Below, piece by piece: positions 20,479 through 42,195 of a stretch of DNA of 64,000 nucleotides (its first letter is position 1; each line of letters starts with the position of its first letter). The notes beneath the pieces are model-generated. The model was not told where the DNA came from, did not search any database, and saw only the letters and a program-made list of their open reading frames with translations. The position numbers were made by a program, and so were the translations under genes. Origin of the DNA: a virus (taxonomy: Duplodnaviria > Caudoviricetes); the IMG/VR virus record IMGVR_UViG_3300009182_000063, positions 571 to 64,570 of that record; one strand, 5' to 3'.

Positions 20479-23400
20479 ATGCTAGATTTCAATACCGAAC
20501 CATACAATGATGACTACAGCGAAGATAGTAAATTCTATCGCATTTTGTTTCGCCCATCATTTGCGGTCCAAGCCAGAGAATTAACCCAACTACAGACTAT
20601 TCTACAAAATCAGATTAGTCGTCAAGGTGGAGCACTTTATAAACAAGGTTCAATGGTTATTCCTGGTCAAGTATCAATAGATACAAACGCCAAATATGTC
20701 AAATTAGTTGCTGTATACAGTGGCGCATCTACTGAATCTTATATTACCTCTACAGCGTCAACTGGTAAATTTATTACTGGATCTAGTGGTGTCCAGGCTC
20801 AAATTATTAAAGTTGTTTCCGCAACTACATCAGATCCAACAACAATCTATGTTCGTTATCGTTCTTCAGACACTACTGCTGGGACGCAAAAAGTATTTGC
20901 CGATGGTGAAGTAATAACTTTTGACGATGGTAGCGGAACAACTCAAGCAGCTGCTTCTTCTGCAACTGGAACTGGTTCTTTGGCAACTGTACAGCGTGGT
21001 GTTTACTACGTAAATGGTTTCTTTGTTCTTTGTGCAGATGCTCATAGTGCAGCTGATCAAACAATTGATCTAGACAAATATACAAATACACCATCGTATC
21101 GTGTTGGTTTAAGTATTCTAGAAACAACAATTACACCAGAAGATGATACAACATTACTGGATAATGCGCAGACTTCATATAACTATGCTGCTCCAGGTGC
21201 TCATCGTTATCATATAGATTTAGTTCTTACTAAACTTCCACTTACCAGTGTTGATGATCAAAATTTTATTGAACTGTTAAAAGTTAGCAGTGGTACTATT
21301 ATTCGTATCGTTAACAAAACAGAATATTCAGAATTAGAAAAAGAACTGGCTCGTCGTACTTATGACGAATCTGGAAACTATACAGTTCGCCCATTCAATG
21401 TTGATGTTCGTGAGGCAAGAAATAATAGTCGTGGAACTTGGACAACAACACCTACCTCTTATTTGATTGGTGATGTTATTTTATATAGCGGAAAAACTTA
21501 CACCGCAAAAAATACTGCAACTTCTGCTTCCTCTGTTCCACCGACTCATACTACTGGAACTGTTTTTGATGGATCAGGAAATACTGGTGTTAAGTGGGAA
21601 TACACACCATATCCAGTATATAATCGTGGTATCAGTTTAACTGGTTCCGATGATCAGCTTGCCATTGCTCTTGATCCAGGTAAAGCATATGTTCAGGGAC
21701 ATGAGATTGAAAAAGTTTCAACTGAATATGTTTATGTCAATAAGTGTAGAGATTCTTCTCATCAAGTTCAAGTTATAAATGCTTTCTTACCAGCGACAGT
21801 TGGTAACTATGTTCTTGTTAACTCAGTAAATGCTGCACCTTTTGTAGATACTTTTGTTCAGGTTGCACTATACAATCAATTTACAACAACTGGCGTTGCT
21901 TCTCCTGTTCCTGGAACTGGTGTTGGCACTCAAGTTGGTACTGCTCGTGTTCGTTTTATTGAGTTAGACAGTGGGACTCAGTATAAAATTGGATTGTTTG
22001 ATATTCAGATGTTTTCTGGATACGACTTCAAACGCAATGTAAAATCTTTTTACTATAACAATCCAGCTGGTGGTGCTGTTGTTGACTTCTCTGCTGATAT
22101 TGCTCCAGTGGCAACTCGTTTAGTCGGTGCTGCTACAGCATCTGCTTCTACAACGATCACTGGTACTGGTACTTCTTTTCAAACTGATTTGCTTGTTGGT
22201 GATTATATTTCTCTCGGTGGAACATATCGTCGTGTAACTGCTATCGCATCACAGAACTCTATAACTGTTGACCAATCAACATCAGTAACTGGTGTTACTA
22301 TTGATAGAGTTTCTACACAAATTCTTGAACCAGAAAATGAATCATTAATCTTTAGATTGCCTTACTATGCAATCAAATCACTAAGATCTTCTGATTCTAC
22401 AAACAGAACTACATACTACGCATATCAGAAATTTACAGCAACAGCTGGTGCAACAGGAAGTGGTGGTACTGGATATTGTACACTAACAGTTTCCGCTGCT
22501 TCTGGAACAATGGCTCCATCTGCTCAAACAAATAATTATCAATTAGTTGATAGTACAACTGGTAGTACGATTTCCTATGTTTCTGCTTCAATCTCTGGTT
22601 CTTCTGCTACTTTTACTTTATCAAATACTTACGCTTCAAGAGCATTTACGGTAATTGGTACTGTTGTAAAAACTCTTTCTTCAAGTACCGAAAAAACTAA
22701 AACTCTGACAACTGCCACTGTGACTTTTACAACTCAAGCAGCTGCTCAAGCACTGGCATTAAGTCTTGGAAAAGCCGATGGATATAGAGTTACCAGCGTA
22801 TTAATGGATGCTGGTTCTTTTGCATCAGCAGCTGGAACATATACTCTTGATATCAGTGATCGATATAACTTCAATGATGGCCAAACTTCATCATTCTATG
22901 GTCTTGCTAAGTTAGAATTAAAACCTTCCTACACTGTACCAAGTGGTCCAGTTCAGGTTACCTTTGAGTATTTTACTCATGGTATTGGAGATTACTTCTC
23001 TGTTAATTCTTATGCTGATGTTGACTATAAAAAGATTCCTTTCTTTAACTCTATATCTTTAAGAGATTCTATTGACTTCCGTCCAAGAGTTGATGATACT
23101 GGTGTAACATTCTCTGGATCAGGTGGTTCTACTTCTTTGATTCCTAAGCGTGGTCAAGAAATTCAAACAGACTTTATTTACTATTTGGCAAGAACAGATA
23201 AGATTGCCATTGATGTTAATGGTAAGTTTTTCCAGATTGCAGGAAATCCATCATTAAATCCAGGAGATCCACCTGAGCCAAAACAAGGTATGGTTCTTTA
23301 CACATTAAATCTTGAACCATATACATTCAGTACAACTTCTAACAGTGTTGCAGTTACTAAAGTCGAAAACAAGCGTTATACAATGCGTGACATTGGAACT

Positions 23401-26400
23401 CTTGAGAGAAGAATTACTAATCTTGAATACTACACTTCGTTGTCTTTATTAGAACAACAAACTGAAGCATTGACAATTACTGACTCAACAACTGGTTTAA
23501 ATCGTTTCAAGAATGGTTTTGTTGTAGACAATTTCAGTGGACATAATGTTGGTGATGTTACCAGCGTAGATTATTACTGTTCTATTGATATGGGTGCAAA
23601 TGAGTTGCGTGCGTTTTATTCAATGAAACATATCGGATTGATTGAAAAAGTTTCAACTGATGCTGCTCGTTCTTCTTCAAATTATAAACTAACTGGTGAG
23701 TTGATTACTCTTCCAATAATTGCAACACCTGCTCTTATTACACAACCATATGCATCTCGTTTGGAAAATATTAATCCATTCGCTATTTTTACTTTCCTTG
23801 GTCAAGTTAATTTAAACCCACCAAATGATACTTGGTTTGAAACTGATCGTCGTCCAGATATTGTTCAAAACCAAGAAGGCGATTTCAATACTATCGCAAC
23901 ACTGGCTGAAAAAGCAGGTGTTCTTGGAACTGTTTGGAACGCATGGCAAACTCAATGGACAGGCGAACCAGTAACATCTACTCAAACATATGTCGGTGAC
24001 CAACGTGGACTTGGAACTGTAGGTTGGAGAGATGGTCTCGCTGCCAATACTCCTGCTGATCAATTGAATGCAATGTTCGGAGATGTTCAAGGACAAGGTT
24101 GGGCACATCGTGTTGTTACGGCACAAACTTCAGCTGTTACTTCTGGTCTATCAAGAACTGGTATTAATACTCAGGTCGTTGCTAAAATTGACACACAGTT
24201 GGTTGAAGATCGTGTTCTTTCAACTGCTGTTATTCCTTATATTCGTTCAAGAAATATTCTTATTCAAGCAACAGGATTAAAACCAAACACAACATTCTAC
24301 CCATTCTTTGATAATGTTAATGTTGCTGCCTACTGTACTCCTGCAACTAAGATTACCTTTACTGGTGCTGTAAATTTTGATTCTACATCAAATGTTGGAG
24401 CCAATACAACTCAAACTGCTCGTTTAATTAATGGTGATTCTCAGAGTTGTTTAAGTAGCGGAGATGTAATAACTGGTGCTTCTTCTGGAGCAACTGCTAT
24501 TTGTGTTGGATCTGAACAGGTATTAAATACAAGCGGTGTTGTATCAACAAGAAACCTTTATGTTGTTAACATCAAGGGAACTTTTACAAATGGTGAATCA
24601 ATTTCTGGTTCAATCAGTGGAGTAACTGCAGTAATTTCTGCAATTGAAACTACTCAGACTGCTGGCGGTTCTCTTGGAACTGATGTCAACGGTAAAGTTC
24701 AATTATTGTTTGCTGTTCCAAATAGCGACACCGCAAGATTCCGTATTGGTCAGCGTCAATTCACTCTTACAGACTCTACAACTAATGATGCAACTTTTAC
24801 TTCTAGAGGTAATGGACAGTATTTTGCTCAAGGTGTTCTTGAAACTAAACAAGCGACATATATGTCTACCAGAAATGGTATCCTTGTTCAGAATCAAGTT
24901 GACCCACAGTTTAAAACAATCACACAAACATCATCTCGTGTAGTTTCTGATACTGGTTGGTATGATCCACTTGCTCAAACCTTTATGGTAAATTCAAGAG
25001 GTGGTGCATTCTTGACAGCAGTTGATTTATTCTTTGCTACCAAGGATAGAAGTATTCCTGTTCATATTGAGATTAGAGAAGTTGTTAATGGTAATCCAGG
25101 AAAAACAATTCTACCCTTCTCTCAGGTTGCATTGAATCCTGAGCAGGTAAATATTTCAACAAGTACTGTTACACTTCCTGATGGAACTATCGTTCCAAGT
25201 TATGACACAGCAACTACCTTTACTTTCCCATCTCCTGTTTATGTTCAGGATGCCACTGAGTATGCTTTAGTTGTTGCTTCTGATTCTAATGGATATAAAA
25301 CATGGATCTCTAACATGGGAGATGCTATTCCAGGATCAAACAGAACTATTTCTGACCAACCATATGCTGGTGTGTTATTTAAATCGCAGAACGGATCTAC
25401 TTGGACTGCTGATCAAGATCAAGACTTGAAGTTTACAATTTATCGTGCTCAGTTTGATGTAAATGCAGTGGGAACTGTTCAATTTGTTAATACTATTATT
25501 CCAAAGGTAACTCTTGATAAGGATCCCTTTGAGACAAATATTGGATCAGCTTTTGTTCGTGTCTTCCATAGAAACCATGGACTTTCAACAAACTCATATG
25601 TAACAATTTCTAACTCTGATACTACAAAGATTTATGGATCTACTCCAACATCTGGAACTATAACATGTTCAACAGGTAGTGTAACTGTTACTGGTTCGTC
25701 AACTGTGTTTAATACAGATATTGGAACAACGACAGTTGGCCAAGGTGCTGTTCTTTATACTAATGAAGCAACTCCAAGATATATTGGTGTAGTTGCATCA
25801 GTAGCAAGTAATACTTCTTTAACTTTAGTTGCAAATGCTGCGATCACTTTGAGTTCAGCAACTACTTTTACAATCGCACCTTCGATTAATGGTATACCAG
25901 TTACAGAGATTTATAAGTTATCAACTGTAACAACAGTGACTGATAACGATTCTTATGTATTGACAACAACTACAACTGGTAAGAAATTTGGTTACGCAGG
26001 TGGTCAAACTGCAACTGCCATTGGAAATTATCAGTATAATGCTTTACAACCAATCGCGCAAGTTCAAACTTTTGCTGATACAAATGCTTTGTTCTCTCTT
26101 AAGACAACAACTGGTAAATCAATAAATGGTTCAGAAACTCCGTATACACTAGACTCTAGTTTCTCTGGTGCAGTTGCAAATGATACCAATTATTTCTCAG
26201 CACCAAGAGTTGTTGCATCTCAACAGAATGAAAACACTTTAATGAGTGGAAATAAATCAGTTACCATTCAATGTCAAATGACAACTACGAATGATGCGGT
26301 TTCTCCAGTTCTTGATTCTAAAAGAATGGGACTTGTTGCTATTAGTAATACATTGAACGCACCAAGCGAAACAGTTATTAATTACGGTAGTTTGGATCAA

Positions 26401-27039
26401 ATTACTTTGACTTCAGCAAATACTAATATTGCTTTTACAAGCACTGGTATAGCATCAGCTGATGGTCCAACTAAAGCACTATTGGCAACTCTACAGGTTG
26501 GTAAATATATTACCATTTCTGGTTCTGGTACTGCCACAAACAACGGAACATATTTAATTACTGGTGTTGCTTCTGATGGCGCAACAGTGACAATCGCTAA
26601 CACAAATGGTTCGACAATTGTTTCTGCAGGAACTGCAATTACCATAGTGTTTAGAAACTCTTACATTGATGAGATTTCTCCGTCGGGTAGCTCTACTCAC
26701 AGTAAGTACGTTACTAAACAGATTAGTTTGGCAACACCAGCTACTTCAATGAAGATTCGTCTTTCAATAAATTCACCAACAGCATCTAATGTTGCAGTTT
26801 ATTATAGAACTTCTCCAGTTGGATCTAAGAACTCTTATGGAACAATTAATTATATTCTTGCAACTCAAGATGGTGTGTTCCCTAAAGTTCAATATGGTGA
26901 TAATTCCTTCAAAGATGTTGACTATACAATAACTGGTTTGACTGCTTTTGATTCCTTTAATGTTAAGTTGGTATTTACTTCAACCAACACATCGGAAGTT
27001 ACTAGAGTTAAAGACCTTAGAGTTATAGCAACAACATAA
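20479..27039 (+). CDS. Large VrlC-like (DUF4815-type) virion structural protein, 2186 aa
   Basis: PYNDDY...FYRILFRP..AVQARELTQLQ, APGAHRY, LARRTYDESGNY, RYTMRDIG.LE.RI.NLEYYTSLSLLE, WYDPLAQTF, LFKSQNGSTW. Confidence 0.85.
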   Translation: MLDFNTEPYNDDYSEDSKFYRILFRPSFAVQARELTQLQTILQNQISRQGGALYKQGSMVIPGQVSIDTNAKYVKLVAVYSGASTESYITSTASTGKFITGSSGVQAQIIKVVSATTSDPTTIYVRYRSSDTTAGTQKVFADGEVITFDDGSGTTQAAASSATGTGSLATVQRGVYYVNGFFVLCADAHSAADQTIDLDKYTNTPSYRVGLSILETTITPEDDTTLLDNAQTSYNYAAPGAHRYHIDLVLTKLPLTSVDDQNFIELLKVSSGTIIRIVNKTEYSELEKELARRTYDESGNYTVRPFNVDVREARNNSRGTWTTTPTSYLIGDVILYSGKTYTAKNTATSASSVPPTHTTGTVFDGSGNTGVKWEYTPYPVYNRGISLTGSDDQLAIALDPGKAYVQGHEIEKVSTEYVYVNKCRDSSHQVQVINAFLPATVGNYVLVNSVNAAPFVDTFVQVALYNQFTTTGVASPVPGTGVGTQVGTARVRFIELDSGTQYKIGLFDIQMFSGYDFKRNVKSFYYNNPAGGAVVDFSADIAPVATRLVGAATASASTTITGTGTSFQTDLLVGDYISLGGTYRRVTAIASQNSITVDQSTSVTGVTIDRVSTQILEPENESLIFRLPYYAIKSLRSSDSTNRTTYYAYQKFTATAGATGSGGTGYCTLTVSAASGTMAPSAQTNNYQLVDSTTGSTISYVSASISGSSATFTLSNTYASRAFTVIGTVVKTLSSSTEKTKTLTTATVTFTTQAAAQALALSLGKADGYRVTSVLMDAGSFASAAGTYTLDISDRYNFNDGQTSSFYGLAKLELKPSYTVPSGPVQVTFEYFTHGIGDYFSVNSYADVDYKKIPFFNSISLRDSIDFRPRVDDTGVTFSGSGGSTSLIPKRGQEIQTDFIYYLARTDKIAIDVNGKFFQIAGNPSLNPGDPPEPKQGMVLYTLNLEPYTFSTTSNSVAVTKVENKRYTMRDIGTLERRITNLEYYTSLSLLEQQTEALTITDSTTGLNRFKNGFVVDNFSGHNVGDVTSVDYYCSIDMGANELRAFYSMKHIGLIEKVSTDAARSSSNYKLTGELITLPIIATPALITQPYASRLENINPFAIFTFLGQVNLNPPNDTWFETDRRPDIVQNQEGDFNTIATLAEKAGVLGTVWNAWQTQWTGEPVTSTQTYVGDQRGLGTVGWRDGLAANTPADQLNAMFGDVQGQGWAHRVVTAQTSAVTSGLSRTGINTQVVAKIDTQLVEDRVLSTAVIPYIRSRNILIQATGLKPNTTFYPFFDNVNVAAYCTPATKITFTGAVNFDSTSNVGANTTQTARLINGDSQSCLSSGDVITGASSGATAICVGSEQVLNTSGVVSTRNLYVVNIKGTFTNGESISGSISGVTAVISAIETTQTAGGSLGTDVNGKVQLLFAVPNSDTARFRIGQRQFTLTDSTTNDATFTSRGNGQYFAQGVLETKQATYMSTRNGILVQNQVDPQFKTITQTSSRVVSDTGWYDPLAQTFMVNSRGGAFLTAVDLFFATKDRSIPVHIEIREVVNGNPGKTILPFSQVALNPEQVNISTSTVTLPDGTIVPSYDTATTFTFPSPVYVQDATEYALVVASDSNGYKTWISNMGDAIPGSNRTISDQPYAGVLFKSQNGSTWTADQDQDLKFTIYRAQFDVNAVGTVQFVNTIIPKVTLDKDPFETNIGSAFVRVFHRNHGLSTNSYVTISNSDTTKIYGSTPTSGTITCSTGSVTVTGSSTVFNTDIGTTTVGQGAVLYTNEATPRYIGVVASVASNTSLTLVANAAITLSSATTFTIAPSINGIPVTEIYKLSTVTTVTDNDSYVLTTTTTGKKFGYAGGQTATAIGNYQYNALQPIAQVQTFADTNALFSLKTTTGKSINGSETPYTLDSSFSGAVANDTNYFSAPRVVASQQNENTLMSGNKSVTIQCQMTTTNDAVSPVLDSKRMGLVAISNTLNAPSETVINYGSLDQITLTSANTNIAFTSTGIASADGPTKALLATLQVGKYITISGSGTATNNGTYLITGVASDGATVTIANTNGSTIVSAGTAITIVFRNSYIDEISPSGSSTHSKYVTKQISLATPATSMKIRLSINSPTASNVAVYYRTSPVGSKNSYGTINYILATQDGVFPKVQYGDNSFKDVDYTITGLTAFDSFNVKLVFTSTNTSEVTRVKDLRVIATT

Positions 27040-27269
27040 TGGAAAATATATTACAGGTTGAAGGAAATCCATCTCTAGTACGAGACTTGGCATCTAACGC
27101 AATTATTAATACGAATATATCAGAGTTTGAAACCTATCTTAGAAATAGAGATATTATGTCTGCTAGAGTTAATCAATTACAGACTCAGAACGAAAAGATA
27201 AATAGACTTGAAAATGATATCAACGACATAAAAACTATGTTACAACTGTTGATCAATAAGGAAAATTAA
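27039..27269 (+). CDS. Conserved small coiled-coil protein following the VrlC-like gene
   Basis: VEGNPSLVRD..SNAIINTN, INRLENDINDIKTMLQLL; coupled by TAATG overlaps. Confidence 0.7.
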   Translation: MENILQVEGNPSLVRDLASNAIINTNISEFETYLRNRDIMSARVNQLQTQNEKINRLENDINDIKTMLQLLINKEN

Positions 27270-28567
27270 TGGCATCTATCACGCTACGCACTGTTAAAGG
27301 AAGTCCTCTTACCAATCAAGAGATGGACGACAACCTTAATAATATCAATGCTCAATTAAATCTTACTTTACCTGCAGCGTCATATACCGCAGCCGATGTG
27401 CTAACGAAACTTAAAACAGTTGACGGAGTTGGTTCTGGTTTAGATGCAGATTTGTTGGATGGTTATAATTCAGCAACAACTGCAACGGCAAACACAATTG
27501 TTCTTAGAGATGCCAATACAGATATTGCCGCAGGAGTGGTTCGTGCCACAACAGTAATTGCCAATGTAACAGGTAATGTCACAGGTAATGTAACAGGAAC
27601 TCTTACTGGAAATGCAACCAATGTTTCTGGCACTGTTGCTATTAATAATGGTGGCACTGGTGGTAGTGATGCAACTTCTGCTCGCTCAAACCTTGGACTT
27701 GGATCAATGGCAACTCAGAATAATTCTGGTGTTACTATTGTCGGTGGAACTATTACTGGTTTAACAACTGCATTACCAATTGCATCTGGCGGTACAGGCG
27801 CAACATCAGCAACTGCAGTAAGAACAAACCTTGGTCTTGCCATTGGTACTGATGTTCAGCCTTTCTCAAACGAATTAACAGGTATCGCAGCAGCAACTAA
27901 CACTGGTATCTATGTTCGTATTGGTGCTGCTTCAGTTACACAAAGATCAGTAGTTACTAATGGAAATGGTATAGTTGTTACAAATGGCAGCGGAGTCGGT
28001 GGTAATATTTCAGTTGACTTACCTAGTTCTGGTTCAGTAACACTTTCATCTCTACAACTTAATGCTGGTTTAACTGTTGGAACAACAGGAACTTTCTCTG
28101 GCGCTGTTACACTTCCATCTATTTCAAAATCTGGTGGTAATGGTTCAGGTGATATTGGCCAAGACGGAAATCGTTTCGGAACAATTTTTGGAACAGCTTC
28201 TACTGCTAAGTATGCCGACTTGGCAGAAAAATATCTTGCCGACGATACCTATGAAACAGGAACTGTTATTGTAGTTGGTGGCGAAAAAGAAGTTACTCAA
28301 TCTTTCTTTGGAGACAAAGCAATCGGTGTTGTTTCTGCTGCTCCTGCTTACTGTATGAATGATGAGTTGAAAGACGGAACAAAGATAGCACTAAAAGGTC
28401 GTGTCCCAGTTAAAGTTGTTGGAGCAATTACCAAAGGCAAAAGTATTACTGCTGGTGATAATGGAACTGCTGTTCAATGTGAACATCACTTCTATGGAGC
28501 GTTTGGCGTGGCTCTTGAATCCAGCGATACTGAAACTGTTAAATTAATTGAATGTGTGATTTTATAA
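27269..28567 (+). CDS. Tail fibre protein with C-terminal autocleaving chaperone (Peptidase G2-like)
   Basis: KGSPLTNQEMDDN anchor, GSGLDADLLDG, GGTG repeats, AKYADLAEKY...IGVVS..PAY.MN...IALKGRVPVKV. Confidence 0.75.
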   Translation: MASITLRTVKGSPLTNQEMDDNLNNINAQLNLTLPAASYTAADVLTKLKTVDGVGSGLDADLLDGYNSATTATANTIVLRDANTDIAAGVVRATTVIANVTGNVTGNVTGTLTGNATNVSGTVAINNGGTGGSDATSARSNLGLGSMATQNNSGVTIVGGTITGLTTALPIASGGTGATSATAVRTNLGLAIGTDVQPFSNELTGIAAATNTGIYVRIGAASVTQRSVVTNGNGIVVTNGSGVGGNISVDLPSSGSVTLSSLQLNAGLTVGTTGTFSGAVTLPSISKSGGNGSGDIGQDGNRFGTIFGTASTAKYADLAEKYLADDTYETGTVIVVGGEKEVTQSFFGDKAIGVVSAAPAYCMNDELKDGTKIALKGRVPVKVVGAITKGKSITAGDNGTAVQCEHHFYGAFGVALESSDTETVKLIECVIL

Positions 28568-28576
28568 TGTTTTTTG

Positions 28577-29653
28577 ATGCATGTACAGCCGATAACATTC
28601 TATAAGACAGCAGCTGTCTCTAGTATACTCAAACCAAAAGATTTAGTAGTCTATCTAAAGACAACTGAAACTTGCCAACTCAACTGCAAACACTGTTTCA
28701 CTAATGGTGTCAACGGCAGAAAAGTTTACTTCAATCCCCAAGCAACAATAGACTGGTTTCACAAACTCCATGCGGAATGTGAAACATTTGGATCAGGCGC
28801 AATTATATTTCATGGTGGAGAACCTTTTCTTGCACCACTTGAAGATATGTATAAAGTTTGGGAAGAAGTATCACCCCTTTGGCCAAATCTTGGTTGGTCA
28901 TGTTCAACGAATCTCTGTTTCGCACTGACAGAGGAACATTTAAAATTCTTCTCAACTGTATTAAAGAATGGTTTCTGCACCAGCTGGGACAAGAACATTC
29001 GTTTTGAAAATGATAAACAAGAAGCACTTTGGAGAAAGAACCTTAGAACTCTTGTTGATCTTGGTCACAATATAACTTTGAACATTAGTCTAAACAAAGA
29101 CTTGATGAAAATGGATACTCTTGAGTTGGTTACTTGGTTAAACACTCTTGGTGTAAACTATGTTCAGTTTGAGCGACTTACCCATGATGGAAGCGCAAAT
29201 ATAAACACTGACATCTTTCCCGAGAATAAAGAGATAGATGATTGGTTTCTTAGAATGCATGAAACTTATCAATCAGTAAAGCCAGAGTACCATGATGTTT
29301 TGTTGGAAGGTGTATATTCCTCTGTCCTAAAAGGTGTTCATGGTGGTGTTCGTTGCAGAGACTGTGAGCAAAAGATCTTTACAATCAATGGCGATGGAAC
29401 AATATCAGGTTGCCCAAATTCCGCTGTTGGTAACAGTTTTGGGGATATTGGGCAGTCTATAAATAGTTTATTAAGTGCTCCAGGAAGAATAAATAATATT
29501 ACATGTGAGGTAGCTCGCGATCCTCGTTGTTACACCTGTAATGTTTTTGACATCTGTAATAGCGACTGTCACCAATTGAGTTGGCAAGGCGATGTTTGTG
29601 CAGCACCAAGAACACTAATGCAAAGGTTAAAACATGACAACAGCTGGAACTAA
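28577..29653 (+). CDS. Radical SAM / SPASM-domain enzyme 1
   Basis: CQLNCKHC (CxxxCxxC), FHGGEP, Cys-rich C-terminus CRDC...GCPN...CYTCNVFDICNSDC...C. Confidence 0.9.
   Translation: MHVQPITFYKTAAVSSILKPKDLVVYLKTTETCQLNCKHCFTNGVNGRKVYFNPQATIDWFHKLHAECETFGSGAIIFHGGEPFLAPLEDMYKVWEEVSPLWPNLGWSCSTNLCFALTEEHLKFFSTVLKNGFCTSWDKNIRFENDKQEALWRKNLRTLVDLGHNITLNISLNKDLMKMDTLELVTWLNTLGVNYVQFERLTHDGSANINTDIFPENKEIDDWFLRMHETYQSVKPEYHDVLLEGVYSSVLKGVHGGVRCRDCEQKIFTINGDGTISGCPNSAVGNSFGDIGQSINSLLSAPGRINNITCEVARDPRCYTCNVFDICNSDCHQLSWQGDVCAAPRTLMQRLKHDNSWN
29458..29465 (+). promoter_or_regulatory. Exact late promoter TATAAATA inside rSAM gene 1, upstream of the CHSN-repeat gene
   Basis: Exact consensus 168 nt upstream of the 29634 ATG; an 8-mer in AT-rich DNA can occur by chance. 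Confidence 0.45.
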
Positions 29654-30152
29654 TATAACAAAGGCAAACATCGTTGCCTCAATGGAAGCAGTTAGAAATA
29701 CCTACAACTCAGGTATTGTTTGGGGTAGCAATGCTCAACCATTTCAATCAGATATTACTGGTGGATCCACTTCTGGATATTCTACTCAATCTTTTGCTGG
29801 TGATATTTCCGACACAAACATAACTGCATCTACAATAACAAATAACTTTAGATCCTATGCTACCCTGCTATCGAGGATTCGTAATGTTCGTTTATTGAAG
29901 TGGTATCAGATTCAAGGCGATGTAAGAAATAGATTAGATTACGATGCCACAAATCTTACAAACTTAAATTCAAATTACCAGTGGAATGCTGATAACAGCG
30001 TTAACTCTGGAGAAACTGTTAATGCTGGAAATCTTGATGCCTTTGTAAACTATCTGTCAGCTAACATTAGTTCATACAGACAAACAACAGTGACAGTTGA
30101 AGAATTCTACTGCCATAGTAACTGCCATAGTAACTGCCACGGAAGTATTTGA
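29634..30152 (+). CDS. 172-aa protein with C-terminal Cys/His repeat (YCHSNCHSNCHGSI); candidate rSAM substrate
   Basis: T/N/S-rich body with no Cys or His until the last 13 residues; overlaps rSAM gene 1; AAGG RBS-like element upstream. Confidence 0.75.
   Translation: MTTAGTNITKANIVASMEAVRNTYNSGIVWGSNAQPFQSDITGGSTSGYSTQSFAGDISDTNITASTITNNFRSYATLLSRIRNVRLLKWYQIQGDVRNRLDYDATNLTNLNSNYQWNADNSVNSGETVNAGNLDAFVNYLSANISSYRQTTVTVEEFYCHSNCHSNCHGSI
30109..30140 (+). repeat. 12-bp tandem repeat ACTGCCATAGTA x2.6 encoding the CHSN units
   Basis: ACTGCCATAGTA ACTGCCATAGTA ACTGCCAC. Confidence 0.9.
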
Positions 30153-30913
30153 TGTATACTGTACCATTTGATTCTGATACTTTGAAGAAAATTATAGTTG
30201 GAGAAATAACTTCTCCTGATATTGATTATGTTCAATCAAAGATCAAGGGTAAAAACTTCATAACATATCTCAGCAATCTCAAGTATGAGAATCTTAATAT
30301 CGATTTCTCAGATGTATCGCTTGATGAAAGAATAGAATTAGTTTCTGAGTATATTAGACACAATTCAACTTGTCACATTGAGCAGTTGGAAGCAACAGTT
30401 ATTAAAGCACTGTTTCACTACAGAGGATATGAGTTATCTCTGGTTGACCAATCAGAAGATGACAAACCATTTTTACACAAGTCTATATTATCGAATGATG
30501 AAATACAAGAGTTCGTTAAGATTGATATCAAATTAATTAAACAACTTGCAGATTTACTTGATGGTGTTCTTTTGTATGCAATTAAAAATCTAAACGATTA
30601 CAAAGAAGAACTTGGCGATTTTGTAACGACCAATGTTATTGTAGAGAAACAAGAAGTTGGAAAAACTTTTGTAAACTTCTTTGATAATCCAACATTTAAT
30701 TGTCACTACTATGGAGCGATCCCTAAATTTGATGACATCAAGTATTTTGACCATTACTTTGACAGACCAATTTACTCTGGTAGAACATTGATTAGTTACA
30801 TAACAGTACCACAGTGTGTTATATTTCCACTATTGAAAATGATTATAGATGTAAAATTTACACCTGAACAATTAAACTCAATATTCAAAGAAGCCGATGC
30901 TACACTTATTTAA
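30152..30913 (+). CDS. Hypothetical protein of the rSAM island (253 aa)
   Basis: ATG overlaps the TGA of the CHSN gene; no motif recognised. Confidence 0.75.
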   Translation: MYTVPFDSDTLKKIIVGEITSPDIDYVQSKIKGKNFITYLSNLKYENLNIDFSDVSLDERIELVSEYIRHNSTCHIEQLEATVIKALFHYRGYELSLVDQSEDDKPFLHKSILSNDEIQEFVKIDIKLIKQLADLLDGVLLYAIKNLNDYKEELGDFVTTNVIVEKQEVGKTFVNFFDNPTFNCHYYGAIPKFDDIKYFDHYFDRPIYSGRTLISYITVPQCVIFPLLKMIIDVKFTPEQLNSIFKEADATLI

Positions 30914-31763
30914 TTCTTGCTATGTATATCCGTACATATTGTTTGATCCAACAAATAATTATTTGGTGGTAGGTGAAGACCATCTGAATCATCAGATAAT
31001 TTCAAATAGTTTTTTCTACAATAATTCTACACCAAGAGAACCTTTTGCCAGATTAGATTCTTTTGAAACCTTTGCTGGATGTAACTTGCTAGATGCAACT
31101 GTCAACAACAAAGATAGATTTTTGATTTATACCGATGATGATAATTTCATTAAATTCTTCACGGCAAAAATGAAAACTCAAGTGGCAAACTTGAGCGAAG
31201 ACTTCTTTCTTACAACGGCAAAGTTGTTTGCAGTTAAATTAAAAACAAGGGCAAAGTTACTTGCAACTGATGACGCAAAACTAGAATTAAATAATCTTGC
31301 CGATAAATTCTTGGCACTAACTTCAATACCAGAAGTTGATGCTTTCTCACTCACACGTGCATGGGTCACTGCCAATGCTGGTATTGAGTGGAAATTTGCC
31401 AATGGTATTCTTGATAATATTCATGACATTGTTAATCGTAATGTGTACTCGTACTTTGATGAAGCAAAGGCACTTTATCTTTCCAGAAAACAAGGTGGCT
31501 GGGCTCTTGAAGAAACCAATCAGAAATATAAAACTTGTGCATCTATTGAAGATCTTTATTCGCAGATGCGTAAAGAGATTATGATATTCACGGATTCTCT
31601 AATTTTACAGTACTACTACGATAGAGAAATGTTTAAGGATCCAAAGTTCTTACTACTACTTGCATCCAATAAAGACATGGGTGATAAGATTGACCTTTGG
31701 TTGATTAGATGGTTTATGAAAATGTCTCAAGAACAAATTAAAGAATTGGACATAGTAGCATGA
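30897..31763 (+). CDS. Hypothetical protein of the rSAM island (288 aa)
   Basis: Overlapping operon gene; N-terminus MLHLFNSCY and IYTDDDNF resemble the next gene. Confidence 0.75.
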   Translation: MLHLFNSCYVYPYILFDPTNNYLVVGEDHLNHQIISNSFFYNNSTPREPFARLDSFETFAGCNLLDATVNNKDRFLIYTDDDNFIKFFTAKMKTQVANLSEDFFLTTAKLFAVKLKTRAKLLATDDAKLELNNLADKFLALTSIPEVDAFSLTRAWVTANAGIEWKFANGILDNIHDIVNRNVYSYFDEAKALYLSRKQGGWALEETNQKYKTCASIEDLYSQMRKEIMIFTDSLILQYYYDREMFKDPKFLLLLASNKDMGDKIDLWLIRWFMKMSQEQIKELDIVA

Positions 31764-32713
31764 TATATCTTTTCGATAACTGTTATCTGTCAACAAAAAA
31801 CATAATAGTTGAAACTGCCAAGCAAGTATGGATCGGTTCTTTTGAGAATTTTGATGAGAAGTCTCTTGACATTTACAAAACATATACCGATATTACTCCA
31901 AAGAAATTAGACGACTTGTTTGCAGATATTCATAAGAATTTCTCAGATAAGAAAACTATTATATACTGTGATGTTGATTATTTCCAGTATGTATATTCTA
32001 TTTTCTTCAATGGTATTTTCAGTAAGGCAACTGTTCTTGAGTTGTATCAATACGATGCTCTCAAGGAAAACTATGGTCTTGCCGATACATATGGTCTGGT
32101 TGTAACTGGGCTCAGAGATATTAATCGTGTTACTTTGCCAGAAGAATTAAATTGGACCAGTGGTTCTTCAAAGTTCTCTGCTGATCTTGATACTCAAAGA
32201 GTTGAGATAGCATTTGCCAATGCGATTCAAGGTAACAAAAAGTCTTTGGCATTTTGTGTTGACAGAATTGATCAAATGTATGATGGCACTCCAGGATTCT
32301 GGTCTAAGTTTGCAGAGCAAACTCTCCCTGGAATTATGTCCGATGAAGAATATACTATCGAGCATTTATTGGACACCGAGTATATGGAAACATACCTTGA
32401 TCAATTTAAGGTAAACGAGTTCCTTCCAAACAAGATTGTTCCAATCATCAATGATAAGTTTGGATATGATTATCATAAGCATTTCTTCACTGTTTTAAAT
32501 AATGATGAAAACTATGAGGAATTCTTAAAACCTATACTAAAGATGAGCAAGAAACAGTTTATCGAGAAACGAATCCTAGATCCAAAGATTGCGGTAAATT
32601 ACAACTTCATCTTTCCAAACATTTCCAACTTTGATTCTGTGAATCCAATTTTCTGGAATGCGATATTAAAGAACCAAGACAATATAGAATGGCTCAAAAA
32701 GTATAAAGTGTAA
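31760..32713 (+). CDS. Hypothetical protein of the rSAM island (317 aa), probable distant paralogue of the preceding gene
   Basis: ATGA overlap; MIYLFDNCY and IYCDVDYF. Confidence 0.75.
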   Translation: MIYLFDNCYLSTKNIIVETAKQVWIGSFENFDEKSLDIYKTYTDITPKKLDDLFADIHKNFSDKKTIIYCDVDYFQYVYSIFFNGIFSKATVLELYQYDALKENYGLADTYGLVVTGLRDINRVTLPEELNWTSGSSKFSADLDTQRVEIAFANAIQGNKKSLAFCVDRIDQMYDGTPGFWSKFAEQTLPGIMSDEEYTIEHLLDTEYMETYLDQFKVNEFLPNKIVPIINDKFGYDYHKHFFTVLNNDENYEEFLKPILKMSKKQFIEKRILDPKIAVNYNFIFPNISNFDSVNPIFWNAILKNQDNIEWLKKYKV

Positions 32714-33765
32714 TGGAATTAATAATTAAACCAACTGAACTTTGTAATTTTAAATGTACCTTTTGCTCATCAACTAAACTTGTAGAAGATAGTGCCAGCA
32801 CTCTTGACTTACAGCATGTTTTTGATTTTCTAAAGAGATTTCCAAATACAAATACAATAATTGTCAATGGTGGAGATCCACTAATGATGAAACCAGAGTA
32901 TTACTTTAATATTCTTGCGTACATTGAAGAACACAAACTCCCAACAACTCTTGGATTCACAACTAACCTTTGGGCATTCTACAAGAAACCAGAGATGTGG
33001 ACTCCGCTGTTTAGACACCCAAGAGTTGGTGTTACTACAAGTTTTCAGTATGGGTTCGGTCGCAAGATTAATGAAAACAGAGTTTATACTGAAGCCGACT
33101 TTTGGAAAGTCAGTGATTTGTTTCTCAAAGAAGTTGGTTATCGTCCAGGGTTTATTGCTGTTATCTCTGAAGAGAATGAACATCATGCAATTAAACATGT
33201 TGAACTTGCCAAGAAAATGGATGTTCAGTGTAAGTTAAACTATGCCATGGCTTCTGGCGAACAGGATAAACCATATCGCCTAAGTAAGATATATGAAGCA
33301 TACCTAGAAGTGTATGAGAGAGACCTTTGGCACTGGGAATTTAACACAAAGCAGATGATGAGTCGTTTGAATAACATTGCCAATGTTTGTCCTCAAGCAA
33401 GAAACTGCGATGATCATATAAGAGCATTGAACCCAGAGGGAGATTACTACTCCTGTGGTTCTATGGGTGATGACAGAGAATATCCAATTAACTTTGTAAA
33501 GGAAGTTAAAGAAGGTGGTTTCTCTACTCCACTTCAAGATGCTCCAGAATTATATTCGCTGAAAGATGAGTGTATTGGTTGCCCAATGTTTGCGATTTGT
33601 AATGGGTGTAAGAAAACAATTAAAGATTTAAAGAAACATGATATGGTTGAAGAGCACTGCTCACATATGAAGCAGTTGGCTCCAAGAATTATTAAGATAA
33701 ACAGTGAAATAGATTATGTCGAAGCAACTCAAAGAATCCATCAAATTCTCGTTCCTGAATATTGA
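32713..33765 (+). CDS. Radical SAM / SPASM-domain enzyme 2
   Basis: IKPTELCNFKCTFC, NGGDPL, C-terminal CPQARNC...YSCG...CIGCPMFAICNGC...C. Confidence 0.9.
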   Translation: MELIIKPTELCNFKCTFCSSTKLVEDSASTLDLQHVFDFLKRFPNTNTIIVNGGDPLMMKPEYYFNILAYIEEHKLPTTLGFTTNLWAFYKKPEMWTPLFRHPRVGVTTSFQYGFGRKINENRVYTEADFWKVSDLFLKEVGYRPGFIAVISEENEHHAIKHVELAKKMDVQCKLNYAMASGEQDKPYRLSKIYEAYLEVYERDLWHWEFNTKQMMSRLNNIANVCPQARNCDDHIRALNPEGDYYSCGSMGDDREYPINFVKEVKEGGFSTPLQDAPELYSLKDECIGCPMFAICNGCKKTIKDLKKHDMVEEHCSHMKQLAPRIIKINSEIDYVEATQRIHQILVPEY

Positions 33766-35608
33766 TCTTCGTGTACCGATTCAAAGGTTACCAATTAATT
33801 GGTTGAACTTTAAGAATTACTACACGAAACATGGTAAATATTCAGACCGAGTAGTTTGGCAGAAACCAATTCTCAATCTAGAAGGTTGGACATTTGAACA
33901 GATTGTGACTTACTATGACGAGCAGGATTCTGACATCTATGCTTTCTCTAGTTATCTCTGGAGTCACATGGCTATTATGGCAGTTGCTCAAGAATTAAAA
34001 AAGCGTAATCCAAACAGAATTATTTTACTTGGTGGTCCACATCTTAATATTACTCATAATAATCTAGGATGGTTCATTAAGAATAAGTTTATCGATGCGA
34101 TTTGCGAACCTACAAGTTATGGTGAGTGGTTCATTACTGATATTTTGAATCAGTTTGTAGAGGGTGATATAAACTACAAAGAAGTTTCCTTTGCGATCTA
34201 TAAAAGTGGACGTGGCACAAGTCCTAATAAGATTGGGTTTGACTTTCCTGCAAGTTTAATTGCTGGCAATGAAGATATACTGTTTGAGTGCAAGAACATA
34301 GCACTTGACAGAAATGTACCTTTGGTTTTACCAATTGAGTTAACTCGTGGTTGTCCCTATGAGTGTGTCTTTTGCGAGTGGGGTGGTGGTATTGGTGGTA
34401 AGGTTATTCGTAAACCACTAGATATGATCAAGGAAGATCTAGACTGGATACCGCAGATCGGTATTGAGCAAGTTCAAATTCTTGATGCAAATTACGGAAT
34501 ATATCTGGAAGATGAGGATGTTTCCAAATATATAGAAACGATCAAAGATTATTCAGGTTTACCAAACCATGTAGAGATATATGGAATGACAAAGTCCAAG
34601 CAAGAAAGACGCTGGGCAACCATTGAACCACTGGCACGAGCAAAGGTAGTTGAGCGATACAAGTTAAGTTTACAAACACTGAACAATGAAGTGTTAAAGA
34701 ATATTAAACGAACAGATATTCCTCGCGAAAAAGACTTTGAGTTTGCTCAGTATCTGTTTGATACCTATGGTATTCGTTCTGACTTTGAATTTATGATGGG
34801 ACTGCCTGGATATACCAGACAAGACTTCTATGATGAAGTAGATATACAGTACGAGTATGGTTATAACCTTGAGAGATATCTTTGGTTATTCCTACCAGAC
34901 TCACCTGCCTACTCACCTGACTATATCAAAGAACATAATATTAAAACTGAAAAGATATGTATCGGTAAGTCAAGAATGAATAGTTATGCTTTTGATGACG
35001 TAAATCTTTTCGGTGATTATCATATTTCCTCTGATCCAGCTTTTACCTCAGATGTTGAGTTTGTTGTTGAAGCCAATGGGTTTACAAGAAAAGACTTTAC
35101 TGAGTTCTTTTTTATGAATTACTGGATCGTGAACAATATTGTTGAAGTTACCTTTACCGATGATATTATAAAGCATAATGTAAATACTGGTAAACTTAAA
35201 ACTCCATCTTTGGTGTTTAAGAAAATCTACGAAAAGATAAGTGAGCCAACAGAAAATAAATATGTGTTGGCAATGCAAGACTTAAATGCTCAGATGTATG
35301 ATTTAATTGCTGGAAACAGAAAAGAAGTTGCAGACTACAAAGAATTTAATCTACCTAATACAACAGTATCAGTGGATTTTAAATATATTTACAAGTCTTG
35401 TATATATGTTTTTGAACAGGAATATATTGATTTTCTTTGTTCAGTCGGTGAGGAGTTGGGACTTGAGATTCCAAACGATATCGTTGAACAATTTACAACT
35501 GTTCTAAATAAGTACAGAGAATCTATTTCTCCAAAGTATGATAAGACCTATCAGATAAGAACCTACTACGAAAATTTTATTAATGAGAAATATACAACAG
35601 TTACTTGA
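33716..35608 (+). CDS. Cobalamin-binding (class B-type) radical SAM enzyme
   Basis: N-terminal B12-binding-like region (FSSYLWS, ILLGGPH), ELTRGCPYECVFCEWG, DANYG, LKNIKR, FMMGLPG. Confidence 0.82.
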   Translation: MSKQLKESIKFSFLNIDLRVPIQRLPINWLNFKNYYTKHGKYSDRVVWQKPILNLEGWTFEQIVTYYDEQDSDIYAFSSYLWSHMAIMAVAQELKKRNPNRIILLGGPHLNITHNNLGWFIKNKFIDAICEPTSYGEWFITDILNQFVEGDINYKEVSFAIYKSGRGTSPNKIGFDFPASLIAGNEDILFECKNIALDRNVPLVLPIELTRGCPYECVFCEWGGGIGGKVIRKPLDMIKEDLDWIPQIGIEQVQILDANYGIYLEDEDVSKYIETIKDYSGLPNHVEIYGMTKSKQERRWATIEPLARAKVVERYKLSLQTLNNEVLKNIKRTDIPREKDFEFAQYLFDTYGIRSDFEFMMGLPGYTRQDFYDEVDIQYEYGYNLERYLWLFLPDSPAYSPDYIKEHNIKTEKICIGKSRMNSYAFDDVNLFGDYHISSDPAFTSDVEFVVEANGFTRKDFTEFFFMNYWIVNNIVEVTFTDDIIKHNVNTGKLKTPSLVFKKIYEKISEPTENKYVLAMQDLNAQMYDLIAGNRKEVADYKEFNLPNTTVSVDFKYIYKSCIYVFEQEYIDFLCSVGEELGLEIPNDIVEQFTTVLNKYRESISPKYDKTYQIRTYYENFINEKYTTVT

Positions 35609-36296
35609 ACACGTAAATAGAATTCCCCATCTGCCATTAAATTTTAACTATGACGCAGAAAGAATTGAACGTGAAGTTCGTGAGTGTCCCTTTCCGCTTA
35701 TGCCCTATGAAGCAACCATGCAAGAAAATCATGGACATGAAAAGAGTAAGTGGAACAACTTGTCACTGTTCAGCTACAATGGTGAAATCTTTTGCGATCG
35801 TTTAGAAGGTGCTGGTCCAGGAGAACTAGAAAGAATTTGGGGCAAAGTTCAACAGACTGGATTGTCTGAGTATATGCCCTATACCTATGAGGTTCTTGAA
35901 CACCTTGGTGGTGGTAAAGCACTGGCAAGGATTGAAGAAATACTTCCTGGAACTGTGATGGGTTGGCATAATCATGTGTTTGAATTGTTTCATCCAGAAA
36001 CAATGATGATTGTTCAGTTGCCCATAACTATACCTCAAAAATTTAAATACTCTGTGATGGCAAACAAAGATTACAGAGGAATGGACTTTGGACTTTATAC
36101 ACCAAAGGTATATGAGTCTACTTACAATCCAGGAACACCAGTTATTTTTAATGCGTATCACTATCATAATGTGTTTAACTTTGACAAAACAGGTGTTCGT
36201 TTAACGATTCGTTTCTTTGCTGATTTAAGAGATGATAGAGTATATGATTTAGTACAGGATGCAGTGAATAATTATAAGGGAGATTACATTGAATAA
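35583..36296 (+). CDS. Asp/Asn beta-hydroxylase-like cupin oxygenase 1
   Basis: WNNLSL, ARIEEILPG..MGWHNH, VIFNAYHYHNVFN...RLTI. Confidence 0.65.
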   Translation: MRNIQQLLEHVNRIPHLPLNFNYDAERIEREVRECPFPLMPYEATMQENHGHEKSKWNNLSLFSYNGEIFCDRLEGAGPGELERIWGKVQQTGLSEYMPYTYEVLEHLGGGKALARIEEILPGTVMGWHNHVFELFHPETMMIVQLPITIPQKFKYSVMANKDYRGMDFGLYTPKVYESTYNPGTPVIFNAYHYHNVFNFDKTGVRLTIRFFADLRDDRVYDLVQDAVNNYKGDYIE

Positions 36297-36987
36297 TATT
36301 GCACATCTTCCTCTTGGTATAGATTTTGATCATAAAAAAATTCTAACAGAGATAGAGAATTTACCTCATTCGCTACGCAAATATCGTAGTGCACTATCAA
36401 ATGGTAAAACCATGGAAATTCATGATGAGGAAAGATGGGATTCGTTGGCACTTTATAGCATTGACGGAAAATCTGAATCTAATCCTGCAGAACCATGGAC
36501 AGGGGACTTTATTAAAACTGAAGCACTTTATATGTGTCCTTACTTGGACAGTGTTTTACACTCTGTCGGTGGTGGTAAATTACTTGGAAGAATTGAGATA
36601 TTTAACAAGAATGGATCTGCTGGCTGGCACAGTCATGTTATGGAAGCGGGACAACCAGAGTGGATCTCTGTTTGGAATCTTCCACTTATTATGCCCAAGG
36701 AATCTAAGTTTAGTGTGCTTTCCTACATGGATTACAGAGGTTCAGATTACAACAAACCGATTAAAATATATGAGCAGTGGTATGAACCTGGAAAGATGTA
36801 CTGTTTAAACAGTTATCACTATCATAATGCCTTTAATTATGGTGATATGTCAATGATTATGATTCGATTCTATGTTGATACAAGAGACGAAAAAGTTAAA
36901 GAAATATTACAAAAAGCCATGGATAACTACACTGGAGAGTACATTCAGTCTTATGAAGAGTATATAATCTCCACTGCAGTTACCTAA
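36289..36987 (+). CDS. Asp/Asn beta-hydroxylase-like cupin oxygenase 2 (TTG start, paralogue of the preceding gene)
   Basis: AGGGAG RBS before TTG; HLPL..D..I, GGGK.L.RIE, GWHSH, DYRG.D, NSYHYHNAFN, IRF..D.RD all shared with oxygenase 1. Confidence 0.65.
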   Translation: MNNIAHLPLGIDFDHKKILTEIENLPHSLRKYRSALSNGKTMEIHDEERWDSLALYSIDGKSESNPAEPWTGDFIKTEALYMCPYLDSVLHSVGGGKLLGRIEIFNKNGSAGWHSHVMEAGQPEWISVWNLPLIMPKESKFSVLSYMDYRGSDYNKPIKIYEQWYEPGKMYCLNSYHYHNAFNYGDMSMIMIRFYVDTRDEKVKEILQKAMDNYTGEYIQSYEEYIISTAVT

Positions 36988-39480: not shown

Positions 39481-39482
39481 AA

Positions 39483-39644
39483 ATGTATAAATTATCAACA
39501 CCTTGGAATGGTAAGTCTCTAGTTATTATTAGACTTAGTGACAATGCTTGTATTCCTATTGACAATAATAACAGAGATTATAGGGAATACCTTAAATGGC
39601 TTGCTGAAGGTAATACACCACTCCCAGCAGATACGGAGAAATAA
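39483..39644 (+). CDS. Small partner protein of AEL copy 1
   Basis: MYKL...IP.D..NRDY.EYLKW...GNTPLPAD; SD lies in the upstream gene end. Confidence 0.7.
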   Translation: MYKLSTPWNGKSLVIIRLSDNACIPIDNNNRDYREYLKWLAEGNTPLPADTEK

Positions 39645-40816: not shown

Positions 40817-41011
40817 ATGTATAAATTAATAGGATATTATGATTACGATAACCACTTAAATAAAGTTGGTGAACTTAAAGTGGAAAAAAATGCTGTTCTC
40901 AGATTAAGAGACACCGCATATGTGTACTTCAATGAAGATAGTAAAGATTATCAAGCATACCTAACATGGGTCGAAGCAGGCAACGATCCTGAACCAGCGG
41001 ACGAGGAATAA
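40817..41011 (+). CDS. Small partner protein of AEL copy 2
   Basis: MYKL...KDYQAYLTWVEAGNDPEPAD. Confidence 0.7.
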   Translation: MYKLIGYYDYDNHLNKVGELKVEKNAVLRLRDTAYVYFNEDSKDYQAYLTWVEAGNDPEPADEE

Positions 41012-41012
41012 T

Positions 41013-42038: not shown

Positions 42039-42039
42039 A

Positions 42040-42195
42040 ATGACATATAAATTATATAAAGATTTTTTGGGAAATGAATGTTGTGTTGTATTAGATGGAA
42101 AAATGTCCATTCCATTTGACCCAGCTAACACTGATTACCAAGCATACCTAGCATGGGTTGCAGAAGGTAATGAACCACTTCCTGCCGACGAATAA
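42040..42195 (+). CDS. Small partner protein of AEL copy 3 (51 aa, missing from the ORF track)
   Basis: Manual translation MTYKLYKDFLGNECCVVLDGKMSIPFDPANTDYQAYLAWVAEGNEPLPADE*. Confidence 0.75.
   Translation: MTYKLYKDFLGNECCVVLDGKMSIPFDPANTDYQAYLAWVAEGNEPLPADE

Follow-up and report, generated by a model that had tools for sequence, protein, structure and literature searches.

A tandem Cys-His tail on a putative phage virion protein as a candidate substrate of adjacent radical-SAM enzymes

The tailed-protein gene and the repeat at its end

We analysed a 64,000-nucleotide stretch of viral DNA (positions 571 to 64,570 of IMG/VR record IMGVR_UViG_3300009182_000063; hereafter the window) with a focus on a gene for a 172-amino-acid (aa) protein that ends in a tandem Cys-His repeat, here called the tailed protein, and on the radical S-adenosylmethionine (rSAM) enzyme genes beside it. 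The window makes up most of a 64.6-kb viral record with an estimated completeness of ~41%, and its gene content is that of the tail, baseplate, and fibre region of the T4-like myovirus type. The sequencing runs that contained window DNA were labelled as freshwater or lake water; in two lake-water runs from two studies (X7 and X22, labelled metatranscriptomes, which may contain DNA), contigs identical to parts of the tailed-protein gene were present. The features on which the analysis centres are the following (ORF, open reading frame):

28574..29653, + strand: rSAM1, a radical-SAM/SPASM enzyme (motifs; phrog_1802, 2e-55); the tailed-protein gene starts within its last 20 bases
29634..30152, + strand: tailed-protein gene, 172 aa, with a predicted folded alpha/beta body and a flexible C-terminal tail (ORF list, homologues, AlphaFold2 model)
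30111..30146, + strand: codons of the three C-H-x-[S/N] units (CHSN, CHSN, CHGS), of which units 1 and 2 form an exact 12-bp tandem (sequence)
30149..30913, + strand: uncharacterised 254-aa protein (phrog_20767, 2e-29), the most faithful neighbour of the tailed protein
32713..33765, + strand: rSAM2, a radical-SAM enzyme with a SPASM-like C-terminus (Pfam Radical_SAM, 8.7e-9, 36.2 bits, cut-off 29.5; phrog_1802, 5.5e-55)

The C-terminus of the tailed protein reads FY-CHSN-CHSN-CHGS-I (TVEEFYCHSNCHSNCHGSI). The protein contains exactly three Cys and three His, located at residues 160/161, 164/165, and 168/169 with the spacing Cx3Cx3C; if six residues were placed at random in 172, the probability of all of them falling in the last 13 would be 5e-8. 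When all six frames of the window were scanned for Cx3Cx3C or Hx3Hx3H, one match lay in an ORF read as a gene, namely the tailed protein, and the remaining 27 matches lay in frames not read as genes. The composition of the protein (T+N+S 0.37, charged residues 0.13) is like that of the neighbouring fibre and virion proteins (0.26–0.33 and 0.10–0.19, respectively) and unlike that of the cluster enzymes and three uncharacterised ORFs (0.14–0.21 and 0.21–0.26). An earlier reading of this DNA, made from the letters alone (the sequence-only reading), had described a tail holding all Cys and His in the last 13 residues, with Cx3Cx3C spacing and an exact 12-bp tandem, on a T/N/S-rich body resembling the neighbouring virion proteins. 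The sequence and the composition figures bear out this description.

AlphaFold2 with a deep alignment gave the tailed protein a mean predicted local distance difference test score (pLDDT) of 84.2 and a predicted template modelling score of 0.77, and the last two 10-residue blocks, which contain the tail, had mean pLDDT values of 58 and 41. As modelled, the protein is a confident alpha/beta body with a flexible tail. A Foldseek search of the PDB with both models of the body fold yielded no match at E<=1e-3, and VIA-align against 48,161 chains reached best Z values of 4.4 and 5.6, below the noise level of the tool. TssK, IglD, and a baseplate chain of phage Milano, which stood in the top VIA-align rows, were rejected as candidates for the body fold, being below noise and tied with unrelated proteins. 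The BFVD matches to the body were uncharacterised phage proteins only, and the tailed protein had no match in Pfam, NCBIfam, PHROGs, or PADLOC. A complex prediction for rSAM1 with the tailed protein scored 0.02 against a mark of 0.32, a result that speaks neither for nor against an interaction.

Conservation of the tail, its gene linkage, and virion presence

A word-based search with the tailed protein returned 263 homologues at E<=1e-3, and the 120 close homologues listed among them all end in three CHxx units followed by a single Ile or Leu. Among 1.84 billion representatives, a profile search recovered 344 clusters (50% identity) at E<=1e-3. Counting of CH pairs in the last 30 residues, carried out for the best 150 of these clusters, gave three pairs in 119 representatives, two in 22, four in 3, six in 3, one in 2, and none in 1. 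In most of the 22 two-pair representatives, the third Cys is absent and H-S-S is retained. Most family members terminate in R-x-R-R (RGRR in 82 of the best 150), which is replaced in the window clade by Ile or Leu.

The units themselves follow a clear grammar. At position 4, the 914 units from 307 distinct sequences have S in 625 cases, N in 262, A in 16, D in 5, Q in 4, T in 1, and R in 1, with Gly in none; position 3 is free and is occupied by Gly in 373 of the 914 units. The unit consensus is, judging by these counts, C-H-x-[S/N]. An alignment of 102 members, from which fragments, fused forms, and the single member without Cys or His were excluded, revealed that C160, H161, C164, H165, and H169 are invariant and that W30, P36, R83, and C168 are nearly so. 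The body is conserved over its full length, and its N-terminus is invariant in the close clade.

Several family members depart from the usual form. Two have expanded tails with six consecutive CHxx units each (P0187 and P0241), and P0192 has several CHxx blocks with short spacers (NVPV, NVV) and 14 Cys in total. In P0204, an insert of ~140 residues lies within the Cys-His repeat (...YCHSS, the insert CVSGNTLL...LISN, then CHSSCHGSRSRR); it contains what we take, by eye, to be intein-like block motifs, and it had no Pfam match at E<=0.01. Two fused forms were also present: P0214, with an N-terminal Gly_rich_2 domain (PF21722, 7e-11) followed by body and tail, and P0232, with a Gly-rich insert inside the body. 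A search of cellular genomes, one per species, gave seven loci, all on contigs of metagenome bins, and these may be mis-binned phage contigs. Four of the seven (L050, L052, L053, and L056) are in bins labelled Bdellovibrio or Bdellovibrionales; L050 carries the tailed protein together with an rSAM gene and a series of further genes, another rSAM gene among them.

Comparison at the DNA level separated the protein repeat from the nucleotide repeat. The exact tandem had been noted earlier in the register ACTGCCATAGTA, at 30109-30120 and 30121-30132; in the codon register, it is TGCCATAGTAAC at 30111-30122 and 30123-30134, followed by TGCCACGGAAGT at 30135-30146, and unit 3 is identical to unit 2 in 7 of 12 bases. 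Among 43 related viral loci whose ends are complete, the first two units are identical in only 5–11 of 12 bases, and TGC/TGT and CAT/CAC interchange freely while the encoded Cys and His remain constant. The exact 12-bp repeat was thus confined to the window among the 44 sequences compared, and DNA of run X4 (record 16, 29731-30182) spans the repeat site with no insertions or deletions. Because units 1 and 2 differ synonymously in the other 43 loci, the exact tandem is a local event in the window lineage: unit 1 seems to have been copied into unit 2, leaving the unit number unchanged. On this codon evidence, the repeat is maintained by selection on the protein and not by DNA slippage. The proposal that unit number could expand or contract by slippage therefore fails, since at least 120 close homologues listed all have three units and the exact repeat is found only in the window; differing counts (two, four, or six) occur only between very distant branches. 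An alignment of homologues had been suggested as a check, and there the expected retention of Cys and His was observed, but the unit number did not vary among the close homologues listed.

Gene linkage was counted in 45 viral loci, collected with the peptide patterns CHSNCH[GS] and RIRxV[RN]LxK[WY]; the 254-aa protein was located by iterated profile. The SPASM enzyme rSAM1 is encoded directly upstream of the tailed gene in 42 of the 45 loci, and the 254-aa protein directly downstream in 41, the four other contigs stopping there. An rSAM2 homologue is encoded downstream in 28 loci; the remaining 17 have less than 3 kb of downstream sequence, too little to show it. The linkage persists down to 21–37% identity of the tailed protein, and the identity of rSAM2 is 88–92% in the close clade and mostly 50–63% in distant loci that keep the body. 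By these identities, the cassette enzymes are better conserved than the tailed protein. The order of the upstream virion genes is repeated in the 23 close loci and several distant ones, and distant cassettes have additional cupin, 2OG-Fe(II) oxygenase, and rSAM genes. Across unrelated phages, the cassettes sit inside tail-fibre or baseplate modules. Cultured phages with the gene pair are Pseudomonas phage pPa_SNUABM_DT01 (DT01; tail CHTSCHTSCHSARGRR), Ralstonia phage RSL2 (ORF068), and Agrobacterium phage Atu_ph07 (gp170), and the linked rSAM gene is present in cultured phages of Agrobacterium, Ralstonia, Burkholderia, Sinorhizobium, and Pseudomonas.

The tail was also found on other bodies. 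In three loci (L040, L044, and L045), the match to the query covers the last 17–18 residues only, and the 254-aa partner and rSAM genes are present. Relatives of rSAM1 with 27–29% identity are encoded on 132 plasmids, 128 of them from Pseudomonas. In the one plasmid examined, pQBR103, a 124-aa protein ending GYCHSACHGACHGACHGARGWR comes after three rSAM genes behind type IV pilus genes, and two more rSAM genes follow it:

L057:8386-8760: pQBR103 tailed protein, 124 aa, with a hydrophobic N-terminal segment and a four-unit tail CHSACHGACHGACHGARGWR in which position 4 is Ala throughout

As far as these loci indicate, the tail is portable between unrelated bodies with the enzymes retained. A plasmid preprint termed the rSAM clusters functionally undetermined.

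The homologue of Atu_ph07, gp170, is among the proteins of purified particles given in the section "Structural proteins" and Supplementary Table S5 of the published proteomic study (PMC6102473). Its entry there records 31.89 kDa, eight unique peptides, 35% coverage, and presence in gel slices 1-9 with a peak in slice 1. The translated homologue has the same mass, 31.89 kDa, and the gene numbering agrees, because gp176 and gp177 likewise have the masses tabulated there. In the same table, other proteins of 29-32 kDa peak in slices 7-8, and slice-1 peaks are mostly proteins of 76-139 kDa; gp170, with its slice-1 peak at 31.9 kDa, therefore migrates as a high-mass species resistant to sodium dodecyl sulfate (SDS). 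The adjacent rSAM proteins gp165, gp168, and gp171, as well as gp169, are absent from Supplementary Table S5. The earlier description of the body as structural-looking is thus in agreement with published proteomics for the Atu_ph07 homologue, which is a virion protein.

The Cys motifs of rSAM1 are complete. Its CX3CX2C motif (CQLNCKHC) begins at residue 34, and C34, C38, and C41 are invariant in 25 homologues. The seven-Cys SPASM pattern is CX9-15GX4C ... CX2CX5CX3C ... C, and rSAM1 has CX9-15GX4C at 261-280, CX2CX5CX3C at 319-332, and C342, likewise invariant in the 25 homologues. On the SPASM model TIGR04085, it scored 21.6 bits, under the cut-off of 27, although the Cys pattern is complete. 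The nearest solved relatives of rSAM1 are 8vpo, ChlB (a match covering the first 100 positions only), anSME, and CteB, which modify peptides or proteins; the enzyme type predicted for rSAM1 fits peptide or protein modification. The CX3CX2C motif of rSAM2 is at residue 11.

Modification of the tail and the rival explanations

Taken together, we consider it reasonably probable that the tailed protein is virion-associated and that its C-terminal tail is acted on by radical-SAM/SPASM enzymes that the phage itself encodes. Modification of the tail on a structural protein is probable because the units are conserved, rSAM genes adjoin, and a relative from a cultured phage is in the particle. The sequence-only reading had already proposed the tail as an rSAM substrate; the proposal gains from genomic context, namely an adjacency kept to 21–37% identity and a plasmid tail beside rSAM genes. 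As candidate chemistries, it had named thioether bridges, His cyclophanes, Asn hydroxylation, and metal binding. We infer which enzymes act on the tail, which bonds they would form, and what role the modified tail would have in the particle. The proposed enzymes are rSAM1, the end of whose gene overlaps that of the tailed protein, and probably rSAM2; in the close clade, additional changes may come from a hydroxylase-like oxygenase and a B12-dependent rSAM methyltransferase. The likeliest chemistry would be radical cross-linking within the individual four-residue units. The His ring could be joined to the beta-carbon of the Ser or Asn two residues on, as happens in triceptides, or the Cys sulfur could form a thioether, as it does in ranthipeptides and sactipeptides, and both bond types could coexist. 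The product would be a rigid polycyclic C-terminal knob, and the protein would then be built into the tail or baseplate region. The link from the His ring to the beta-carbon would fit because of the H-x-[S/N] grammar, the lack of Gly at position 4, and the survival of H-S-S without Cys. The regular Cys spacing would fit thioether formation.

Among described systems, the HXS defence system appears nearest in logic. According to the available sections of Li et al. (Nat Commun 2026, PMC13128918), HxsA of this antiphage system is matured by the rSAMs HxsB and HxsC with HxsD, and a mass change was mapped to one H-x-S unit. The likeness lies in a protein-sized target with tandem His-x-Ser units and in two rSAMs and a small partner of unknown function encoded beside it (PMC13128918). 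However, as described in the same sections, the HxsA units are without Cys and HxsA, a defence effector of the bacterial periplasm, carries a peptidoglycan-binding domain, whereas the units of the phage protein are C-H-x-[S/N] and lie at the extreme C-terminus. In addition, rSAM2 scored 30.7 bits on the HxsC model TIGR03977 (cut-off 267.9), rSAM1 had no listed HxsB or HxsC match, and the tailed protein did not match the NCBIfam HxsA models even at E<=10.

Triceptide (three-residue cyclophane) synthases that act on His motifs include HaaB (HAA), HtkB (HTK), and YhhB (HNR), and the accessible part of that work describes aromatic-x-x motifs in which His C2 is bonded to the third residue's beta-carbon, precursors with 2-3 Hxx motifs, and SPASM-type rSAM maturases (Phan and Morinaka, 2024, PMC11499958). 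The tailed protein similarly has H-x-[S/N] three times, with a third position that has a beta-carbon and is never Gly in 914 units. In contrast to the triceptide precursors, which in that part of the work are short peptides with leaders, the phage target is a folded protein of 172 aa in which a Cys precedes every His. Moreover, the enzyme scores were far from the named families (YhhB 21.7 bits vs 445, FxsB 18.7 vs 370, AmcB 20 vs 425), and the cross-link here is a prediction only.

As for thioether-forming enzymes, PapB is reportedly a SPASM rSAM that acts on CX3D repeats. CrpC acts on the Cys-rich protein CrpA and, in the available portion of the report, introduces thioether links on the whole protein (Dieter et al., 2026, PMC13692751). 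The tailed protein resembles such targets in having Cys at a fixed short spacing beside a SPASM rSAM, and CteB is among the nearest solved relatives of rSAM1. It differs in that the scores are low (PapB 25.1 bits vs 340, RumMC 21.2 vs 720, StsB 19 vs 625), that the third Cys is dispensable in most of the 22 two-pair representatives of the best 150, and that the invariant His is not accounted for by thioether chemistry alone. The Cxxx-repeat families TIGR04117 (Syntroph_Cxxx) and PF27846 (tSAM_targ_Cxxx_rpt) embody the same idea of a predicted rSAM target, as annotation without experiments. TIGR04117 did not match the tailed protein, and a six-unit relative reached 14.5 bits against a cut-off of 50. 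Atlas clusters near the tailed protein, 67-82% viral, have an automatic PF27846 (Pfam 38.1) label on 25-40% of their members, so database curators have noticed related tails. Since none matched at cut-off, the system is not a member of the named enzyme and target families searched.

A bolder form of this idea is possible, but we hold it only tentatively: that the covalent links made by rSAMs on the Cys-His tail of a tail or baseplate protein extend in some cases to other virion proteins, and that the modified tail serves also on type IV pilus-operon proteins of Pseudomonas megaplasmids, as a shared enzyme-made "hardened tip" for extracellular filaments. Virion maturation of this kind would not have been described before. 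Links to other virion proteins would explain the abundance of the Atu_ph07 homologue in the top gel slice.

Several points weigh against modification of the tail by the rSAM enzymes. The virion detection concerns a distant homologue and not the window protein, which is ~30% identical to the other distant homologue aligned, that of DT01. The conservation of the tail among the 45 loci is partly built in, because the search patterns include the tail; the profile search that gave the 344 clusters is free of this pattern bias, but there, too, the tail contributes to the score. One member, P0259, has a tail without Cys or His and yet keeps the terminal GGRGRR, so the Arg-rich end can persist without the repeat. 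As regards the enzymes, rSAM1 and rSAM2 have no room for an N-terminal peptide-recognition domain, since their CX3CX2C motifs start at residues 34 and 11, and the rSAM genes score far below cut-off on every named maturase family, so their chemistry is not readable from homology. Finally, there is no family member with an observed modification, and Cys and His are classic metal ligands, so that metal binding by itself could account for the conservation.

An unmodified tail that binds metal is accordingly the main rival, although we regard it as unlikely. Here the tail would bind Zn, Fe, or Cu, perhaps at a site to which several subunits of an oligomeric virion protein contribute, and the rSAMs would act elsewhere. 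The placement of three Cys and three His within 10 residues favours such a site, and metal sites formed by His motifs are known in T4 fibres. An SDS-stable oligomer would equally explain the position of the Atu_ph07 homologue far above its monomer mass. However, a metal site leaves unexplained the preference for S or N at position 4, with Gly excluded, next to an unconstrained position 3. Nor does it account for rSAM neighbours kept on three different bodies, on both phage and plasmid replicons, and the window holds no other Cys/His-repeat candidate substrate on which the enzymes could act.

It is quite improbable that the protein is the precursor of a ribosomally synthesized peptide that is modified post-translationally (RiPP); its 159-residue body would then act as a long leader, from which the modified 13-residue tail would be cleaved and set free as a small bioactive peptide. 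The adjoining SPASM rSAM genes and the repeated C-terminal motif do recall RiPP precursors, but searches of the nine cluster proteins in Pfam, PHROGs, NCBIfam, and PADLOC turned up no protease or exporter family. A leader also agrees poorly with conservation over the whole length of the body, with the invariant N-terminus in the close clade, and with a body predicted to fold confidently. Peptides over 35% of the Atu_ph07 homologue were recovered from purified virions, and the cassette lies within the structural modules of unrelated phages.

Very improbable, in our view, is a role of the tailed protein as an enzyme accessory, that is, an Fe-S cluster carrier or electron donor acting through its Cx3Cx3C tail. 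Ligation of Fe-S clusters by Cys and His is common, and phages with up to seven rSAM genes would need many clusters. Yet the third Cys can be lost in most two-pair representatives while the His is kept, the Atu_ph07 homologue is in virions and the enzymes are not, and the body composition is fibre-like. A contingency locus, in which the two identical 12-bp units of the window would vary the tail by slippage, is scarcely credible given the three units of all 120 close homologues listed, the 5–11 of 12 bases shared by units 1 and 2 in the 43 other loci, and the run X4 contig without indels across the site.

Small peptides and a few cellular proteins are known targets of radical-SAM modification. 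If a phage particle protein is another, as we favour for the tailed protein, a new step would be added to virion assembly. A full-text literature search found no paper that describes the tail or assigns a function to the phage rSAM genes; phage genome papers, in the sections available, give the rSAM and oxygenase genes as accessory only, and the term "radical SAM" is absent from a jumbo-phage review (PMC7824862). The system is widespread, as the 344 clusters at 50% identity and the several host genera of the cultured phages indicate, and one chemical module would connect phage tails with plasmid pilus operons. A further question that the system raises is how oxygen-sensitive enzymes can be of use to phages whose freshwater hosts are aerobic. 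Atu_ph07 and pQBR103 are in culture, which makes the proposal directly testable.

Other genes of the cassette and the window

The remaining features of the cassette and the genes upstream of it are listed below:

20479..28567, + strand: upstream virion genes for a 2186-aa structural protein, a 76-aa virion protein, and a 432-aa tail-fibre protein (phrog_358, phrog_473 [virion structural protein], and tail-fibre PHROGs)
30897..31763, + strand: uncharacterised 288-aa protein, in 12 loci, all of the close clade, without a family match
31760..32713, + strand: uncharacterised 317-aa protein, in 8 loci, all of the close clade, without a family match
33716..35608, + strand: B12-binding radical-SAM protein, putative C-methyltransferase (Pfam Radical_SAM, 4.6e-12; B12-binding, 1.6e-5, below cut-off)
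35583..36296, + strand: Asp/Asn beta-hydroxylase-like protein (PF05118, 4.3e-4, 20.6 bits, below the cut-off of 22.6), in 6 close-clade loci
36289..36987, + strand: uncharacterised 232-aa protein, the cassette end in the close clade (BLAST in L014 and L020-L022; profile in 6 loci)

The 254-aa protein had no match in Pfam, NCBIfam, or PADLOC. Its Atlas neighbours are bacterial clusters automatically named "Anti-phage protein Upx-like" (scores 0.89-0.93, few shared features), which is a weak lead. The 288-aa and 317-aa ORFs had no match in Pfam, PHROGs, NCBIfam, or PADLOC; paralogy between the two was considered and rejected, as BLASTP showed only a 10-residue N-terminal likeness (E 0.11). The B12-binding rSAM matched the NCBIfam KedN5 family at 5.6e-35, with 120.6 bits against a cut-off of 700, and the 232-aa protein had no family match in PHROGs or NCBIfam. 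The motif TATAAATA, which we take to be the T4 late promoter motif, occurs five times in the window, compared with 5.6 occurrences expected by chance.

A run of tail-fibre genes occupies 38191-46716. Four of them (38191-39480, 39644-40816, 41013-42038, and 45595-46716) have the C-terminal family phrog_4492 in common, and three (38191-39480, 42224-43585, and 43907-45595) share the N-terminal family phrog_18673. By this pattern of shared ends, the run looks like a set of alternative fibre tips. In the 432-aa fibre gene, at 27565-27599 within its repetitive part, the X4 contig "goes back 35" bases, with 13 other letters between, which suggests repeat-length variation between strains in this gene.

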